From IMG/VR virus record IMGVR_UViG_3300018080_008188, positions 32,001 to 96,000 of that record: a stretch of DNA of 64,000 bases; one strand, written 5' to 3'. A program made the position numbers and the translations under genes. The DNA comes from a virus. The notes under the pieces are model-generated. The model did no database searches, was not told where the DNA came from, and saw nothing but the letters and a program-made list of their open reading frames with translations. Position 1 is the first letter of the stretch; the number at the start of each line of letters is the position of its first letter. This document shows, one piece after another, positions 10,845 to 38,933 of the stretch.

Positions 10845-11147
10845 ATGAGCAGATTCAACTATTTTGAAAACATCAGCGTTGACGGGTACTCGTTTCCGAC
10901 TGTGCCGCAAGCCCAGTTCAACTTCATCGCGCAGGGAATATCTTTCCTGAACCGCGGTTCGAAAATCCTCCAGTATTCGTTCGACGGCACAAATGTCCAT
11001 GGCGACCTGGACCCGTCGGATGCCTCTGCTGGCCTCACATTCGACAGCCGGAACGAGCACCGGGTGTGGTTCAAGGGGGACGACGGGTACGGCACTGTGC
11101 GTGTTGAGGCATGGGGCGGCTGGGGCAAGAAGCTGACCAACCGATGA
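10845..11147 (+). CDS. Small beta-rich hypothetical virion protein
   Basis: 100 aa, GAGGT RBS, two DGY motifs, ends ...VRVEAW. Confidence 0.7.
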   Translation: MSRFNYFENISVDGYSFPTVPQAQFNFIAQGISFLNRGSKILQYSFDGTNVHGDLDPSDASAGLTFDSRNEHRVWFKGDDGYGTVRVEAWGGWGKKLTNR

Positions 11148-12389: not shown

Positions 12390-12541
12390 GACGAAGTGGA
12401 AGCGCAAGTGCGATATGGACATCGGAACTATGATGTTCATTCTCAGGAAAGGAGCTGGCTGAAAAAGCCGGCTTTCAACATGGCTCGTCGGTGTAAATAT
12501 AAAACGCGGACGACGACAAAGAAGAGAGGAAAAGAATCAAG

Positions 12542-13048
12542 ATGGAACAAGAAAGATTCACTGGAAAAGTAGTTTGGTCAAGCTAGGCCCCATGTAGAGG
12601 AAACTCTTCATGCGTACCGGGTGAATTGCTGGAACCCTCAGCGCATAGCGGCGGTGGAAATCAGCAGCCAAGCCTGCGAAAGCCCATAGAAGTAGCAGGA
12701 AGGTTCAGAGACCAGAGGAGAGAGTAGGGCAATCAATAACCTCCTCCACGAGCGCCCGGCATCCCATGCGGATGATGATATGGTCCGACACTCCGGAAAA
12801 ATCCGGAGATCCGGTTTAAACGGCCGGAACAACTGATTGTTAGCGAGAAGCGCGGATACGGCTTCATCGGTCGCGACGACGACGGCAGCGAGCTGTTCGT
12901 ACACTACACGAACATTATCGACGATCCCGGAGCGTTCAGAAAGCTGGTTTCCGGACAGATTGTCAGCTTTGCGCTTGGCGAAAACAACAAGGGCTTACAA
13001 GCCGTGGAGGTCGAGATCATTGGCGAGCCGGAGATCGAGGCGCAATAG
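12542..13048 (+). CDS. csp: Cold-shock domain protein, spliced: join(12542..12578,12840..13048), 81 aa
   Basis: Spliced product MEQERFTGKVVWFSEKRGYGFIGRDDDGSELFVHYTNIIDDPGAFRKLVSGQIVSFALGENNKGLQAVEV... has RNP1 (RGYGFI) and RNP2 (LFVHY); GAGAGGA RBS upstream. Confidence 0.93.
12579..12839 (+). ncRNA. Group I self-splicing intron, 261 nt, no ORF
   Basis: Exon ends in U, intron ends in G; P AATTGCTGGAA, Q AATCAGCAG, R GTTCAGAGACCA (12703-12714), S GATATGGTCC; P3 CCGGGTG/CGCCCGG; P1 GGUC/GGCC with U.G at splice site; P10 GCUAG pairs with exon 2 UUAGC; P2, P8, P9 hairpins present. Confidence 0.93.
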
Positions 13049-13514
13049 TAGCGGCATCACGGAGCAGTACTGGGTCAGGAACATACATCCGCAGAGGATG
13101 CATGTTATGGTTGGGGACCTAGGATACAAGGTTCCATGGGGTCAGTCGCGCAACCTTCTAAGCCCGACTTCGGGCTTGGACCCGGCGCGCGTGAAAAAAT
13201 CCGCCAAAGGCGGATCTCTTCGCAAGCGCCTGGACCAGCGCATCTTGGTGGAGGTTTCCGGACCGCCGGACTTGCGCCCTCCCAGGCTGTCAGTGGCGCC
13301 TCCAGACAGCCTGTCGTTTCCGTACCGTTCAAAGTCCGGAATATCGGTGGACGAGGGCGATGTTGCGGAGGAGCTGCAGTCGTCCATCATAGCTGACGAC
13401 GACAATCTGATCCGCGAAATGGAGATAGACATGGACGGCGACGGCGACGGGGACAACGACATGACGGAGGGCGGAATCCCCATCATGGCTTCGGAAGAAA
13501 AGGGGAAAGGGTAG
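13020..13514 (+). CDS. Hypothetical protein with acidic C-terminus
   Basis: Frame of ORF 12837..13514; TTG at 13020 follows a GGAGG and avoids most overlap with csp exon 2; start uncertain. Confidence 0.55.
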   Translation: MASRRSRRNSSGITEQYWVRNIHPQRMHVMVGDLGYKVPWGQSRNLLSPTSGLDPARVKKSAKGGSLRKRLDQRILVEVSGPPDLRPPRLSVAPPDSLSFPYRSKSGISVDEGDVAEELQSSIIADDDNLIREMEIDMDGDGDGDNDMTEGGIPIMASEEKGKG

Positions 13515-13515
13515 C

Positions 13516-13842
13516 GTGCCACTCAGACCGAAAAAATCGTGCGAGGTTTGCGGGCTGAAAAAGCGAAGCATTCTGCACAGGCACCACATTATACCGCGGT
13601 GCGACCCGCGATGTACCAACTCCAACGGAAACATTGCCGTTTTGTGCCCCAACTGCCACGGGCTGGTTCATGCCGGGGAGATTGTAATCGTAGGCGTATA
13701 CACGTCCACCGCCGGAATCGTTCCCGTATGGTTCAGAAGCGGCGAAGAGCCGCCGTTTCCGAAAGAACTCTGGATAGTGAAGGACAATCCTCTGGTCAGG
13801 ACGATCGGCGGGGAAGAAGACGATCTGCCTGAAGAGGAATGA
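13516..13842 (+). CDS. HNH endonuclease
   Basis: CEVC...HRHHIIPR...NGNIAVLCPNCHGLVH. Confidence 0.85.
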   Translation: MPLRPKKSCEVCGLKKRSILHRHHIIPRCDPRCTNSNGNIAVLCPNCHGLVHAGEIVIVGVYTSTAGIVPVWFRSGEEPPFPKELWIVKDNPLVRTIGGEEDDLPEEE

Positions 13843-16355: not shown

Positions 16356-16541
16356 ATGGGAGCTGAAACGGCAACGCTCATAGATCAGCTGGCGGAGATT
16401 TTTCAACTCACATCTGTTAAATGTAACACTTGTGGTTTCGAATTCTACGGACCAGCAAAATGGGACGATAAGAATAAGACAACTGTACATTTGGGCAAAT
16501 GCCCAAAATGTGGTTCGAAAGACATTTCAATCAAGGAGTGA
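16356..16541 (+). CDS. Small zinc-ribbon protein
   Basis: CNTCG...CPKCG in 61 aa. Confidence 0.7.
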   Translation: MGAETATLIDQLAEIFQLTSVKCNTCGFEFYGPAKWDDKNKTTVHLGKCPKCGSKDISIKE

Positions 16542-16546
16542 AAAAA

Positions 16547-17437
16547 ATGAGTACACAAATCGATGTATTGAAGGCAAAAACCGAGCAAATTTCCATTCTA
16601 GGCGAAGAGCGAATTGCCATGGACCCGGAATTGCGTTCCAACGAAGGCATTGCTTTACATCAGCAAGTGCTTATTACGGTCATGAATGATACGGATAAGT
16701 ACGGCATGTATACGGTTCACATGGATTATCAAGATGGCACGGATAATGACGATGTTCGCATGACTTTGGCTGGTCGCCAGAGGCTTGACCAATCAGATTC
16801 TTTCGACGCTTATTTGGACAAGGATTGCGTTCAAACGGGACAAAGCAAAGCGCAACTTGATTCAAACAACCAGTACGGAGAAATTCTTACCGAAACTGAT
16901 TCCCAGCACGACAAGATCGTAATCTGTGCTCCTCATGGCGGCGCCATTGAATCAAACACTGATGAGCAAACTGAGTGGTGTTATAACAAGCTGGTCAATA
17001 CCTACAGCAAAGACGCCAGCAGATGGGAAGCGTGCGGTTGGCAGGACGAAGTTGGAGCATACGATGCCTGGCATATTACAAGCACCGACATTTCCCGCGA
17101 CAGTTTTAGCCTTTTGGATTCAATCGGCGATCGCGATTTCCAGTACGCAGTGGCATTCCACGGATTTTCACAAGACGGAATTCTCATCGGCGGAAATGCG
17201 CCGGCGGATTTGAAATGTACGATTCGGCAAGCTATAGAAACTGCTTGCGAGGGTAATGTTGAAGTTGCCATTACTACCGAAGGCGAATACTCCGGTACCG
17301 ATCCGGACAATTTTGTGAACTGGTTAACGGATGGCGGCAGCGGCGGTATTCAAATCGAGCAAAGCTATTATGCTCGGTCCAACTATGCCCAGGAGATCGC
17401 CGAAGCGGTAGCTGATGTGATGCAAAGTCTGATCTAG
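16547..17437 (+). CDS. Poly-gamma-glutamate hydrolase-like protein (PghP/YjqB family)
   Basis: APHGGAIE, HITST, FHG, NFVN, GIQIEQ match zinc-peptidase motifs of the phage PghP family; AAGGAG RBS supports start 16547. Confidence 0.8.
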   Translation: MSTQIDVLKAKTEQISILGEERIAMDPELRSNEGIALHQQVLITVMNDTDKYGMYTVHMDYQDGTDNDDVRMTLAGRQRLDQSDSFDAYLDKDCVQTGQSKAQLDSNNQYGEILTETDSQHDKIVICAPHGGAIESNTDEQTEWCYNKLVNTYSKDASRWEACGWQDEVGAYDAWHITSTDISRDSFSLLDSIGDRDFQYAVAFHGFSQDGILIGGNAPADLKCTIRQAIETACEGNVEVAITTEGEYSGTDPDNFVNWLTDGGSGGIQIEQSYYARSNYAQEIAEAVADVMQSLI

Positions 17438-26717: not shown

Positions 26718-29700
26718 ATGACCTCAAGGTACCCAGCGGAAATAGACGGATATCAGCAAATAAGGGTGGCTCGCGACGGCGTCGACGAGATAGTCGCCAC
26801 AGATCACAATGCCCTTAGAAGTGCTGTCGTAAAGGTAGAGCAGACGCTCGGCATCAATCCGGCCGGATCTTTCGGAACGGTGGTTGCGCGCCTTGAGAGC
26901 GCTTCGGCTGACATCATGAGCCATGTCACCGGATCGCAGCCAAAACACCAGGACACTGTCATCGAAGGCGCGGCAAAGTCGTCTTCATATCTTGCGCTAG
27001 CGGCCGGGTCAACGGCTACCCAGCTGTCCGCCCTGGTACAGGCTCTTGGAGAATCGTCCGGAGCCCTTCGCGTAGGATATGCCGGCAGCGGAGCTGACAA
27101 GTTCGCGGACGGCAGCGCCGTCCCATCGGGCACGGTCAAAAGCGGACTGGGGTCGATCGCTTCGATGCTTGGCGGGTCTTCCGGGTCGGAAAGGATTGGG
27201 GCGTCCGGCTTCTCCACAGGCAAGTTTTCCGTTTCAGGGGCAGATATCGATGCACAGCTTAAAAGCCTTGGGGGAGTCGCCGACGAGTTGAGCGAAATTG
27301 CCGAAATGGCGTTTGCCGGTCTTGTAACAAGCGGCCTGGCAGTGACGCGCGCAAATGCCACCTCCGTGAATGTTTCGTCGGGGTTTTTGATGTCCGACGG
27401 TCTTCTTCGCAGATATGCGGGAGGAACCTTTGCGCATTCCGGTGCGGGCTTCCACCGCATATACGCGTATATCAACAGCTCCGGCAATATCGCCATCGGA
27501 GACGCCGCCAGCGACGCCGCGCTGATGGCCAATGTTCCTCTGGCGGTTTTTACCGAAACTGGAGCGGCGCATACCGGATTCGTCGGTCTTCGCAGGTTCG
27601 GTCTTCACATGAACCGCGAGCAGATAACGGTCGGGTCGGACGGGTACGGGGCGGATTTTACATCGTTCAAAAGCGCCATGGAATACATGAGCCGGGCGGT
27701 GTCGGCCGGAGCATTCACGCCGCGCAAGATTATGGTGGTAAGCGACATAACGGTTCCCTCAGCAGAGCTGCCGATAGAGCTTGAAAGCGACATGATGGTC
27801 GACGGCGGAAACCACACGCTGACATGGAGCGCAGACTCTGCGCTGTTCAAAATCGACAACAAGAACAGGGTGGTGGTCAAGAATGTGAGGGGGTACTACT
27901 CTCCGGCGGCTGTCGGCGTCAACGCTGCTTTCCTGGACATCGACGCGACAACCTCCGCAAGCGAAGTGGAAGTTTCTACATGCTTCACCAGAAGCGGCGG
28001 AGGCTTGGGATATTTCATCACATACGACACGAGCGGAGGAGGAAGCCTGGACACATTGGTTGTCGAAAGCTGCAATGCCAGATGCGAGCTGTCCGCTCTC
28101 AAGGGCGGAACGGCCGCTGCCGAAGCCGCACCGAAGCACAGCAGAATAGCTGGAAACTATTTCGGACAGAATTCGTTTGTAGCGCAGGCTGATCCGTGTA
28201 TGATGATTGGCGACTTTTCCATTGCGGACGGAAATGTGCTGCAGGGGGGCTACAATGTCGGAATCCGCTCGCACTATGCCGAGGGCGTGGTCGTTTCAGA
28301 CAACATAGTGAACGGCGGCACGGGAACCAGAACGGTCTCCGGCACGGCATACATGGCCAAAGGCATCGAGATGATGGTCAATGCTTCGCTGTGGCTGCAG
28401 CGTTCGATAATCAGCGGAAACTATGTCAAGGGCTGCACATCTGTCGGAGTAGACCTCAATCCTTCGGGCACTGGCGAAGCCACGAACTGTATGGTAAGCG
28501 GGAACATGGTAGACAATTCTCGCGATTTCGACGCGGCGTCGATAGGAGTCAGGGGCGACGACCAGAATTCCATGGTCGAAGGCAACTATATCATCCATCC
28601 GGGGACATACGCTGTTTACAAGTCGCCATATATCGTCGGAAACATGGTACACTGCAAGCAGGGCAACACCATGACTTCTGCAATCGACGTCTCCGGCACC
28701 GATCCAATGGTAGTTAGCGGAAACATGGTGTTCGATCTCAGCGGAGACGGCATAACGGGCAGCGGGGACGATTTCCAGCTAGTACATGGAAACTACATCT
28801 CGTTCGATTCCGGGGGGGCTCCGGGCGTGGGCGTTTCCGGCATGGGCGAAAACGCGGCAATTGCGTACAACTACATAGGCAGTCCGGGAACCTACGGGAT
28901 AAACCATGGAGGAGATTCCGGAACCGTGGCTGGGAATGTCATTGACAGCGCGACCGGAATAGGAATCAACATCAGCGGCCTCCTGGCTTCCGTGTACGGA
29001 AACGCAATTGTGGACTGCCAAGGGGCGTCATGCGTCGTCGTCAGCGGCAACAGGGCGTCTGTTGCTGACAACCTGCTTGTTTCCCCAACTGCCAAGGGCG
29101 TGGCATTGTCGTCTGCGCAGTATTGTATGGTTTCCGGCAACTATGTTAGCGGAGCCGGCGGAACGGCGATAGAGGCCGGATCCGGCTGCCACCACGCTTC
29201 GTTCGTTGGAAACTATGCCTACAGCGGATCCGGCATAGGAATTCTTGCCAGCGCCGAAAGGTGCCTGGCCTCGTCCAATTTCGCGTATGGCGGGACTGTG
29301 GGAATATCGTTCGATGCGTCTGCTGCGCGAGGCGCAATAGTGGCCAACCATGTGGTAGACAACACCGGCGCGGCAGCAATAGAGAACTACAGCGGCCTGT
29401 GCCTCATTTCCGGAAACTTCTCAAGAAACGCCGGCGGCGTCGGCATACGGCTGGACGGAAACGCCATCGATGTGATAGGAAATTTCGTAGACGAGCCTAC
29501 GAGCCATGCGTTCGAAGCTCCCGGCTCGCACGCCTGGTCGTCGGTCGTCGGAAACTATGTCAGGCTGTCCGGAGACCATGCAATAGAAATGGAAAGCAGC
29601 TACGAGGCGCTGATAATCGGAAACAACCTTAACGGGGTAACCGGAATAGGAATTTCGACAAACGGGGTCCTGTGCACGGTGGCAAGCAACAAAATACGAA

Positions 29701-30776
29701 GCGCATCCAGCCACGGAATAGACATAAACGACGGCGACAGCAACCTTGTAATTGGCAACCATCTGTACAGCATCGGAGAATATGGCATAAACGGAGATTC
29801 GTCGGACCTGGCGTCCATTATAGGAAATTTCATTTCGACCGTAACCAACGCCAACCAGAACGGAATAGGCATTGCCGGAGACCGGTGCTCGATAGTTGGA
29901 AACTTTATTCAGAATATCAGCAACATAGGAATAAACGCAACTGGCGACAACAACCTGGTGTCTTCAAATGTAATCGACACCGCCGATTTTTGTATTCGCA
30001 ACGGCGCCAATGCGCTCATAATCGGCAACAGGATGCGAAGCTGCGACTGGGGAGTGTATCCGTACGGGGCAAGCCACAACATGTCCGTTGTCGGCAACAT
30101 GGTTGATACGCATGCCGAAATAGCGTATGTGATAGACGGTCTTGAGGACTGCCTGGTAATAGGAAATACATCGGTCACTCCGGCCGATGCTGCCGCATAC
30201 GGAATATACGGACCGACTGCAAACAGTTCGATGGTTGTAGGAAACAGGTGCGAGGGAACAGGCGGAGGTGCCATATACTCTCTCGGAACCGGAGTCGTGG
30301 ATTCTTTCAACAAGGGGCAGTCATACGAAGTCACCCTTGGAGCAGCCAGTGCAGCAGTGGAAAGAACAGATGCCGGGGCGTCGACATGGGACAAGGTGAC
30401 CGCGGAGCTTTCTGCCACCAATGTCACTTTCGAGCCGTTTTACTACTCCGTGGTCTGGGAGTTCGGAAACGAGTCTGTTCCCATTGGGGCGACCATAGAT
30501 CAGATTGAAGTTGAATATTCCATTTCTGTAGGAGCGGTTAACGACCTCAACATGTCGTGGACCAGCGACAAGGGATTTGGGGCTGCCCCAGTAACTGTGA
30601 ATGCACAAGGCGCAGTAGCTGCCACTGGCCTGAACAAGACCGAAACCATGACTCCGGATGTTCCTCCGGCTATCATGGAAAGGGGGCAGTTTCATCAGGT
30701 TTTGTGCATAGCCATGAATGTTAGCGGTGCCTGGTCGATGAAAATACATGCGGTCAGGCTAACATACACACTTTAA
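26718..30776 (+). CDS. Large right-handed beta-helix fibre/tailspike-like protein
   Basis: 1352 aa; dozens of (I/V)xGNx(I/V)...GI repeats of about 22 aa; N-terminal YPAEID anchor. Confidence 0.8.
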   Translation: MTSRYPAEIDGYQQIRVARDGVDEIVATDHNALRSAVVKVEQTLGINPAGSFGTVVARLESASADIMSHVTGSQPKHQDTVIEGAAKSSSYLALAAGSTATQLSALVQALGESSGALRVGYAGSGADKFADGSAVPSGTVKSGLGSIASMLGGSSGSERIGASGFSTGKFSVSGADIDAQLKSLGGVADELSEIAEMAFAGLVTSGLAVTRANATSVNVSSGFLMSDGLLRRYAGGTFAHSGAGFHRIYAYINSSGNIAIGDAASDAALMANVPLAVFTETGAAHTGFVGLRRFGLHMNREQITVGSDGYGADFTSFKSAMEYMSRAVSAGAFTPRKIMVVSDITVPSAELPIELESDMMVDGGNHTLTWSADSALFKIDNKNRVVVKNVRGYYSPAAVGVNAAFLDIDATTSASEVEVSTCFTRSGGGLGYFITYDTSGGGSLDTLVVESCNARCELSALKGGTAAAEAAPKHSRIAGNYFGQNSFVAQADPCMMIGDFSIADGNVLQGGYNVGIRSHYAEGVVVSDNIVNGGTGTRTVSGTAYMAKGIEMMVNASLWLQRSIISGNYVKGCTSVGVDLNPSGTGEATNCMVSGNMVDNSRDFDAASIGVRGDDQNSMVEGNYIIHPGTYAVYKSPYIVGNMVHCKQGNTMTSAIDVSGTDPMVVSGNMVFDLSGDGITGSGDDFQLVHGNYISFDSGGAPGVGVSGMGENAAIAYNYIGSPGTYGINHGGDSGTVAGNVIDSATGIGINISGLLASVYGNAIVDCQGASCVVVSGNRASVADNLLVSPTAKGVALSSAQYCMVSGNYVSGAGGTAIEAGSGCHHASFVGNYAYSGSGIGILASAERCLASSNFAYGGTVGISFDASAARGAIVANHVVDNTGAAAIENYSGLCLISGNFSRNAGGVGIRLDGNAIDVIGNFVDEPTSHAFEAPGSHAWSSVVGNYVRLSGDHAIEMESSYEALIIGNNLNGVTGIGISTNGVLCTVASNKIRSASSHGIDINDGDSNLVIGNHLYSIGEYGINGDSSDLASIIGNFISTVTNANQNGIGIAGDRCSIVGNFIQNISNIGINATGDNNLVSSNVIDTADFCIRNGANALIIGNRMRSCDWGVYPYGASHNMSVVGNMVDTHAEIAYVIDGLEDCLVIGNTSVTPADAAAYGIYGPTANSSMVVGNRCEGTGGGAIYSLGTGVVDSFNKGQSYEVTLGAASAAVERTDAGASTWDKVTAELSATNVTFEPFYYSVVWEFGNESVPIGATIDQIEVEYSISVGAVNDLNMSWTSDKGFGAAPVTVNAQGAVAATGLNKTETMTPDVPPAIMERGQFHQVLCIAMNVSGAWSMKIHAVRLTYTL

Positions 30777-37309: not shown

Positions 37310-37831
37310 ATGGCAAAATCGGGAATCCAGATGATAGAGGAAATGCTAGGAAAACTGAGCGTGCTTGACAGGCGCATGGAAGTGCTGGAGCAAACCATGA
37401 AAGAATTGCTCGCTGCGCGAAACGCACAGCCTCAGCCGGTCCAGGTCCAGCAGAAGAAAAGCCTGCCGGAAGGGCTGAGGCTTAACAGCAAGCCGGCATC
37501 CGAAGCCTCAAGCCAATCCACACCTCGCATGGCAGCTGCTGATGAAAAGCCCGAGTTCCAGCCGATTGTGAAAGCCGCTTCGAATGCCAGGGCAATAGGG
37601 CGTGTTCAGCAGGGCGGAAAAGCAGTGCCTGGAGTCAGCGTGACGCTGTTCGATTCGCGAAACCATCCTGTTAAGGAGACGAAGACAAACCGTGCCGGCG
37701 ACTGGATGGCCTTTCTGCCGCCTGGAAGATATGCGGCGGCATGTATGCTGGAAGGAAAAATAAACGAGAATGTCATGTTTGAAGTAAAGCCCGGAGACAA
37801 GATCGTAAGGGTCGGTCGGCCAAATGAGTAG
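37310..37831 (+). CDS. Protein with N-terminal coiled coil and carboxypeptidase-regulatory-like (prealbumin fold) domain
   Basis: GRV...G.AVPGVSVTL...TKTNRAG.W...LPPGRY. Confidence 0.65.
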   Translation: MAKSGIQMIEEMLGKLSVLDRRMEVLEQTMKELLAARNAQPQPVQVQQKKSLPEGLRLNSKPASEASSQSTPRMAAADEKPEFQPIVKAASNARAIGRVQQGGKAVPGVSVTLFDSRNHPVKETKTNRAGDWMAFLPPGRYAAACMLEGKINENVMFEVKPGDKIVRVGRPNE

Positions 37832-38933
37832 GGAACTCTGCTCAGGATGTCTTGAAGTGAAAACCATATGCTTCAGGAATAAAGATGGTGCTTTCTGCCA
37901 GTGGTGCCGCAAAAAGATGCGCCGCAAAAAAGAAACATGCGCATCGTGTGGCAAGTCTTTGTATATTGCCGCAAAGGGGATGTGCCATTCGTGCTATAAC
38001 AAAAGCAGGATGGAAACATGCCATAAGTGTGGCAAAAATGCGGTTCCCAAAAAAAGAACAGACAGAGGACCATTATGTCGCAGATGTGCCACAATGTCCA
38101 GGCCATCCATTATCTGTAGCGTATGCTCCAAAAGCAAAAAGAACTGCTTGGTCAGCGGCTATCGGATGATTTGCGAATCGTGCCATGCCAACAGCAAAAG
38201 AAAAAATTGTATCTGTACAGAATGTAAAGAAAAGAAAAGAATTTACTCTTCCAAGATGTGCTTTGCGTGTTTTTCGAAAGAGCGATGGAGCGCGACACCA
38301 TGCGAACGGTGCGGCTCGGTTCCAACGCTTGAAGGGAAATGCCGAACTTGCCGCTTGAAAAAGAAGATTTGTTCAAAATGCGGAGTAACAGCCGTGATGG
38401 CATCAAAAAACATGTGCCACGCATGTTACAGGAAAAGAAGGCAAACCGAACGATGCTCGTCATGCGGCAGGGAATCCACCCCATGCTTCAGAAACAGCGA
38501 CGGAAGCATGATATGCAGGGCATGCTATCGCAAGCACAAACAACCAAAAAAGACCTGTTCGGCATGCGGAAAAACAAGCATTCTGTGCTCAAAGGGAATG
38601 TGTAGAAAATGCTGGATGAAAAGTCCAGACATGATGGCAAAAAGAGCATGCCGCTCGACGGAGGGCAGCATATCCGGACGGAGCTGGAAAAAGCTTATGG
38701 ACAGCCACTCATGGAGATGCTTCTATTGTGGGTCGAAGCTGCGCAGGCAAAACAGGTCCGTGGATCACATAGTTCCCAGGTCCAAGGGCGGAAACAACGC
38801 TTTAAAAAACTTGGTACCATGCTGCAGATCCTGTAATTCGCGAAAAAGGAACAAAGACGCGTTGTTCTGGGCAACGAATGTTTTTGGAGTCAAAAAGAAA
38901 ATGATTCTGCGTATTTTGAGGGCATATCGATAA
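37824..38933 (+). CDS. HNH endonuclease with tandem CxxC zinc-finger array
   Basis: 18 CxxC before the nuclease domain; CFYCG...SVDHIVPRSKGG.N...NLVPCCRSCNSRK. Confidence 0.85.
   Translation: MSRELCSGCLEVKTICFRNKDGAFCQWCRKKMRRKKETCASCGKSLYIAAKGMCHSCYNKSRMETCHKCGKNAVPKKRTDRGPLCRRCATMSRPSIICSVCSKSKKNCLVSGYRMICESCHANSKRKNCICTECKEKKRIYSSKMCFACFSKERWSATPCERCGSVPTLEGKCRTCRLKKKICSKCGVTAVMASKNMCHACYRKRRQTERCSSCGRESTPCFRNSDGSMICRACYRKHKQPKKTCSACGKTSILCSKGMCRKCWMKSPDMMAKRACRSTEGSISGRSWKKLMDSHSWRCFYCGSKLRRQNRSVDHIVPRSKGGNNALKNLVPCCRSCNSRKRNKDALFWATNVFGVKKKMILRILRAYR

Follow-up and report, generated by a model that had tools for sequence, protein, structure and literature searches.

A probably self-splicing, lineage-specific group I intron in the cold-shock gene of an uncultivated huge phage

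How could a phage make a cold-shock protein (Csp) from a gene whose reading frame ends after 14 codons? The question is raised by a csp gene in a 64,000-nucleotide stretch of viral DNA, the window, which spans positions 32001-96000 of an IMG/VR virus record of 134 kb and whose numbering is used for coordinates here. The record is 25% complete by CheckV's estimate, and contigs of its relatives are as long as 442 kb. Genes in the window are densely packed on a single strand and few have family matches. Phage genes are well known to harbour group I introns, and we conclude that csp carries a real one: a lineage-specific, most likely selfish intron of an uncultivated huge phage that probably splices itself. 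Direct support comes from the match to a covariance model, from canonical helices that covary, from splice sites that obey the group I rules, from the restored reading frame and from orthologues without an interruption; splicing itself, and splicing without a helper, would follow from the chemistry of the group I family. The elements of the gene are:

12542..12578, + strand: csp exon 1, from the ATG at 12542; 12 codons (MEQERFTGKVVW) plus the first base (T) of a Phe codon
12579..12839, + strand: ORF-less group I intron (RF00028); 261 nt, 54.8% G+C, terminal G12839
12582..12589, + strand: internal guide sequence of the intron; 12586-12589 in P1, 12582-12586 in P10
12584..12586, + strand: in-frame stop TAG, which terminates the unspliced frame after 14 codons
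12840..13048, + strand: csp exon 2; last two bases of the Phe codon, 68 codons and the TAG at 13046-13048

The exon 2 frame reads SEKRGYGFIGRDDDGSELFVHY... from 12842 to the TAG at 13046-13048, with SEKRGYGFI... following the split Phe. It matches the Pfam cold-shock domain (CSD, PF00313) from 12842 with 55.3 bits (cut-off 27) over profile positions 10-64 of 66, which is the one CSD match in the 134 kb record, and it also matches phrog_729 (cold shock protein). Both nucleic-acid-binding motifs, RGYGFI and LFVHY, lie in exon 2. By itself this exon misses only the first beta strand of the domain. Exon 1 provides that strand, and the N-terminus it encodes is homologous to that of the uninterrupted csp of four relatives described below (L062, L127, L123 and L124). 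Like bacterial and phage cold-shock proteins (PF00313, phrog_729), the product is a single CSD of about 70-80 aa with two nucleic-acid-binding motifs. A 225-aa ORF at 12837-13514 (+) overlaps exon 2 in another frame and is conserved only from about 13050; gene-calling software might merge them, and the csp exon would then be hidden.

The position of the junction was evaluated with an HMM built from 19 uninterrupted CSPs, with no group I rules assumed. All in-frame combinations of exon 1 ends at 12555-12599 and exon 2 starts at 12790-12869 that gave a product of at least 60 aa were scored. The junction 12578/12840 ranked first of 1382, with 94.6 bits for an 81-aa product that contains the complete CSD (75.1 bits for exon 2 alone). 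Among the 25 best junctions, it is the only one that has a U before the 5' cut and a G before the 3' cut and lies ahead of the TAG. The alternative 12584/12840, at which the U and G are also present, was rejected: its cut falls within the in-frame TAG, its score is 86.2 bits and it would add two residues absent from the uninterrupted orthologues. The preferred junction also agrees with the group I splice rules, with U12578, the final base of exon 1, as the 5' splice-site U paired to G12587 in P1, a terminal G12839 and a 5-bp P10. An earlier note on this DNA had proposed that removal of 12579-12839 gives a complete 81-aa CSD protein and that unspliced RNA stops after 14 codons. Both proposals are borne out, as the frame runs two codons past exon 1 and then meets the TAG at 12584-12586. 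The intron is inserted after the first base of codon 13, the Phe of a conserved W-F. The best match of the spliced product is the 75-aa protein of the syntenic L062 locus, with 39 of 73 residues identical, nearly end to end.

The exon 1-intron junction (12536-12692) recurs with 0 differences in a 157-nt contig from a second, seawater study, and thus the intron-bearing allele also exists outside the probable source sample. Reads and contigs at the locus gave neither exon-exon joints nor an intron-less form, and comprised the probable source contig and the short contigs of the second study; among the sequencing runs searched for the locus, none of those carrying it was an RNA run. A promoter and terminator scan returned nothing on the + strand.

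The identity of the intervening sequence is firm. When the whole window was compared to all 4227 Rfam families, 12569-12806 (+) matched the full length of the group I intron model RF00028 (positions 1-253) with 67.3 bits (cut-off 50; E 6.7e-15), which agrees with the earlier assignment made from the letters alone. This is the only group I match in the whole 134 kb record. The intron has the following helices:

12576-79/12586-89, + strand: P1 (G12576-C12589, G12577-C12588, U12578-G12587, C12579-G12586)
12591-12612, + strand: P2, standard pairs
12617-23/12753-59, + strand: P3, standard pairs
12627-32/12661-66, + strand: P4, standard pairs
12667-69/12702-04, + strand: P6, standard pairs
12673-77/12695-99, + strand: P6a, standard pairs
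12708,12710-14/12781-86, + strand: P7, standard pairs, A12709 bulged
12715-20/12741-46, + strand: P7.1-like 6-bp hairpin between P7 and the 3' strand of P3
12760-64/12770-74, + strand: P8, standard pairs
12791-96/12803-08, + strand: P9, standard pairs
12810-14/12824-28, + strand: P9.1, standard pairs

P10 is formed by 5 bp between UUAGC (12840-12844) and GCUAG (12582-12586). The intact P1, P3, P7, P10 and terminal G seen in the first reading of the sequence all stand, with every pair standard; P7 is GACCA/UGGUC where the Rfam consensus has GACUA/UAGUC. P5 is less clear-cut and appears as two 3-bp segments in a local fold. P1 is short, with three exon base pairs plus C12579-G12586, so the intron may need a helper to splice efficiently. 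In the minimum-energy fold, 12570-12574 (exon 1, upstream of P1) pairs with 12831-12835 near the 3' end of the intron. This pairing may be due to chance, or it may be a contact that brings both splice sites together.

In subgroup IA introns, one or more extra pairings (P7.1/P7.2) separate P7 from the 3' strand of P3; IA1 and IA2 introns have both P7.1 and P7.2. Given its P2, the hairpin after P7 and P9.1, the csp intron resembles subgroup IA and is a candidate member. With T4 td, nrdB, sunY and other IA phage introns it shares the overall P1-P10 layout, including P2, P9.1 and a hairpin that follows P7. Unlike IA1 and IA2 introns, it has one such hairpin (6 bp, at 12715-12746). Unlike introns of the T4 td/nrdB/sunY type, it has no homing endonuclease ORF, the longest stop-free stretch in all frames of its 261 nt being 66 codons on the - strand, and its P7 is GACCA/UGGUC. 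Its G+C content of 54.8% is close to that of the window (53.9%).

Covariation among related phage introns supports the fold. A scan of IMG/VR with a 15-mer spanning J6/7-P7 gave 33 loci; 19 of the 33 were then scanned with Rfam, and group I introns were found in 8 of these (11 matches). We aligned 11 introns with MAFFT, namely the csp intron, nine from the 15-mer loci and one from MT837385.1. Standard pairs occupy 94.6% of the cells of the P3/P4/P6/P7 core, in which P3 and P7 form the expected pseudoknot, and compensatory changes on both sides occur in 11 of 22 core pairs; these figures support the fold among introns that are related, not independent, as they were chosen by a shared 15-mer. 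None of 500 shuffles reached either value, and controls in which the partners were slid by 1-3 columns were 23-41% paired. P7 covaries as GACCA/UGGUC, GACUA/UAGUC and GACUG/CAGUC, and the GACCA/UGGUC variant is also present in 7 of the 10 other aligned introns.

Signs of more than one intron were seen in two other records. On one viral contig (L009), three group I matches (95.5, 74.9 and 67.5 bits) fall within 830 bases at 534-1364, so the gene there is split into very short exons. The closest database match to the csp intron core lies at 1501-1592 of MT837385.1 (L006; 78.7% over 94 nt), and a separate full-length group I match of 77.2 bits lies about 400 nt downstream of it, at 1966-2215. Based on these matches, MT837385.1, an unannotated faecal phage fragment, probably has at least two introns.

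Unlike the csp of the window, none of the other cold-shock genes that we examined is split. A search with exon 2 gave 3 viral and 18 metagenome loci (32-53% identity), and in all 21 the first strand and an RGYGFI-type motif are contiguous in one frame. From a profile search that gave 172 confirmed viral csp loci we took the best 80, and all 80 are likewise uninterrupted (69 by a pattern test, 11 by reading). Some contigs occur in more than one locus set (L125 is L062; L128 is L002 and L043). Synteny with the window was seen at four loci: L123 (on a 442 kb contig), L124 (302 kb), L125/L062 and L127. Each has homologues of the ORFs at 11111, 11734 and 12159, followed by csp, some 450-560 nt and an orthologue of the HNH endonuclease gene that lies downstream of csp in the window. 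The earlier note had named intron-less csp alleles of relatives as the comparison to make; such alleles are found at all four loci, in the same place, and Rfam scans of these loci gave no match. Thus the intron is present only in the lineage of the window, and is most likely a recent, lineage-specific passenger and not a conserved regulator, as far as these comparisons of sequence can tell.

Some other properties of the relatives were recorded. One candidate for a within-lineage donor, a group I intron located away from csp near 207 kb in the 442 kb relative, was rejected, as it aligns poorly with the csp intron. A search for relatives with a 375-aa neighbour protein found none; those described here came from the searches with the HNH and csp genes. 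G+C content is 30-45% at the L123, L124, L062 and L127 loci, versus 54% in the window, and the 302 kb record is classed by IMG/VR as a provirus.

Splicing of the csp transcript could proceed as follows. The RNA would fold into a P3-P9 core, and the internal guide sequence would pair with the end of exon 1 to form P1, including U12578-G12587. Exogenous guanosine would attack after U12578, a guanosine-started reaction that is expected of the csp intron as of T4-type IA introns. P10 would align exon 2, and exon ligation after G12839 would give an mRNA for the 81-aa Csp. Unspliced RNA would yield a 14-residue peptide only, and production of Csp would thus depend on splicing. Taken together, we are confident that the 261-nt element is a group I intron free of an endonuclease gene in the csp of a huge phage; most likely it is selfish or neutral and was gained in this lineage alone.

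How an intron that lacks its own endonuclease came to be in csp is a question to which the downstream neighbours are relevant:

13050..13514, + strand: conserved protein gene between csp and the HNH gene; start uncertain (TTG 13020 or ATG 13099)
13516..13842, + strand: free-standing HNH endonuclease gene, 108 aa (Pfam HNH, 29.7 bits)

The first of these, which lies outside the intron, shares 35% identity (E 9e-29) with L062 2547-3023, in the same place. A structured RNA was considered for the 467-nt csp-HNH gap (fold z = -3.3) and rejected in favour of this conserved gene; Rfam gave nothing at or over the cut-off in the gap.

In collaborative (trans) homing, the HNH enzyme would cut intron-less csp at the W-F codons, and the intron would protect the site and spread by repair. 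Such pairs are documented in two phage systems, one being the psbA intron of a cyanophage with F-CphI (PMC3984707). Like the introns of both pairs, the csp intron lacks an ORF, sits at a conserved site (the most conserved stretch of csp) and has a free-standing endonuclease gene close downstream. The HNH gene starts 677 nt downstream of the 3' splice site, and the 134 kb record has just one other HNH match. Its homologues (50-65% identity) occur in 61 viral loci, of which one has other neighbours from the window, and this fits a mobile gene. However, unlike in those pairs, the endonuclease orthologues (60-68% identity) adjoin an uninterrupted csp in all four syntenic relatives (L123, L124, L125/L062 and L127), so that the co-occurrence expected of a collaborative pair fails and a link between the HNH gene and the csp intron is not supported. 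Furthermore, a group I intron was found in only 2 of 46 viral records with HNH homologues, in both cases over 10 kb away from the homologue. The HNH gene thus predates the intron and does not depend on it. We therefore regard homing driven by this enzyme as unlikely. The second HNH domain of the record (HNH_5, 49.9 bits) forms the C-terminus of a 369-aa protein at 37824-38933 (+) of the window, the remainder of which has no family match.

It is less probable still that the intron acts as a regulatory switch, in which temperature- or chaperone-dependent folding of the ribozyme gates the phage's own RNA chaperone. With the weak 4-bp P1, splicing would track temperature or the level of Csp in an autoregulatory or cold-sensing feedback loop. 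Output of Csp strictly requires splicing, and with so weak a P1 the reaction might vary with conditions. Proteins of the CspA type act generally as RNA chaperones, for which group I introns are standard substrates (PMC3017892, PMC11587861); there is also a paper entitled 'Group II intron as cold sensor for self-preservation and bacterial conjugation' (PMC7293003). On the other hand, the idea starts from a coincidence of functions, Csp being an RNA chaperone, and the intron is missing from the four syntenic relatives and from all of the best 80 of 172 viral csp loci; it is thus not a conserved feature of csp control in the lineage. Decay of the intron, with a ribozyme that no longer splices and csp as a pseudogene, is similarly improbable: P1 is short and csp may be dispensable, but all core helices, the U-G pair, the terminal G and P10 are intact, the RF00028 score is well over the cut-off, and both exons are open, with conserved CSD motifs and a homologous N-terminus.

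A selfish or neutral intron of this kind resembles those of the Jug phages, huge gut phages for which 2513 ORF-less introns of about 206 nt are given in 136 genomes in the accessible text of PMC12880540. The csp intron belongs to the same ribozyme family, has a similar size and no endonuclease ORF, and likewise lies within highly conserved coding sequence of a huge phage and has an in-frame stop near its start. It differs in its host gene, which encodes a CSD protein, whereas the Jug host genes named in that text are terL, nrdD and DNA polymerase. It differs also in number, with a single intron in 134 kb versus a mean of 18.5 per Jug genome (PMC12880540, same text).

Two other proteins encoded in the window match known enzyme families. 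A 1352-aa protein (26718-30776) has a right-handed beta-helix/NosD region, and a 312-aa protein (16499-17437) matches poly-gamma-glutamate hydrolase. Judging from these matches, it is possible that both are depolymerase-type enzymes that act on the host surface.

Our literature search found no report of a group I intron in a cold-shock gene; the host-gene tables of PMC11835236 and the Jug supplements may list one. The csp intron adds a CSD gene to the phage genes invaded by group I introns, with newness judged from text searches only. It also illustrates a problem for annotation, since gene callers blind to introns would miss a small csp of this kind or call a wrong-frame ORF (12837-13514) instead. 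As an RNA chaperone gene that carries a ribozyme, the locus would be a cheap and direct test case for condition-dependent splicing.
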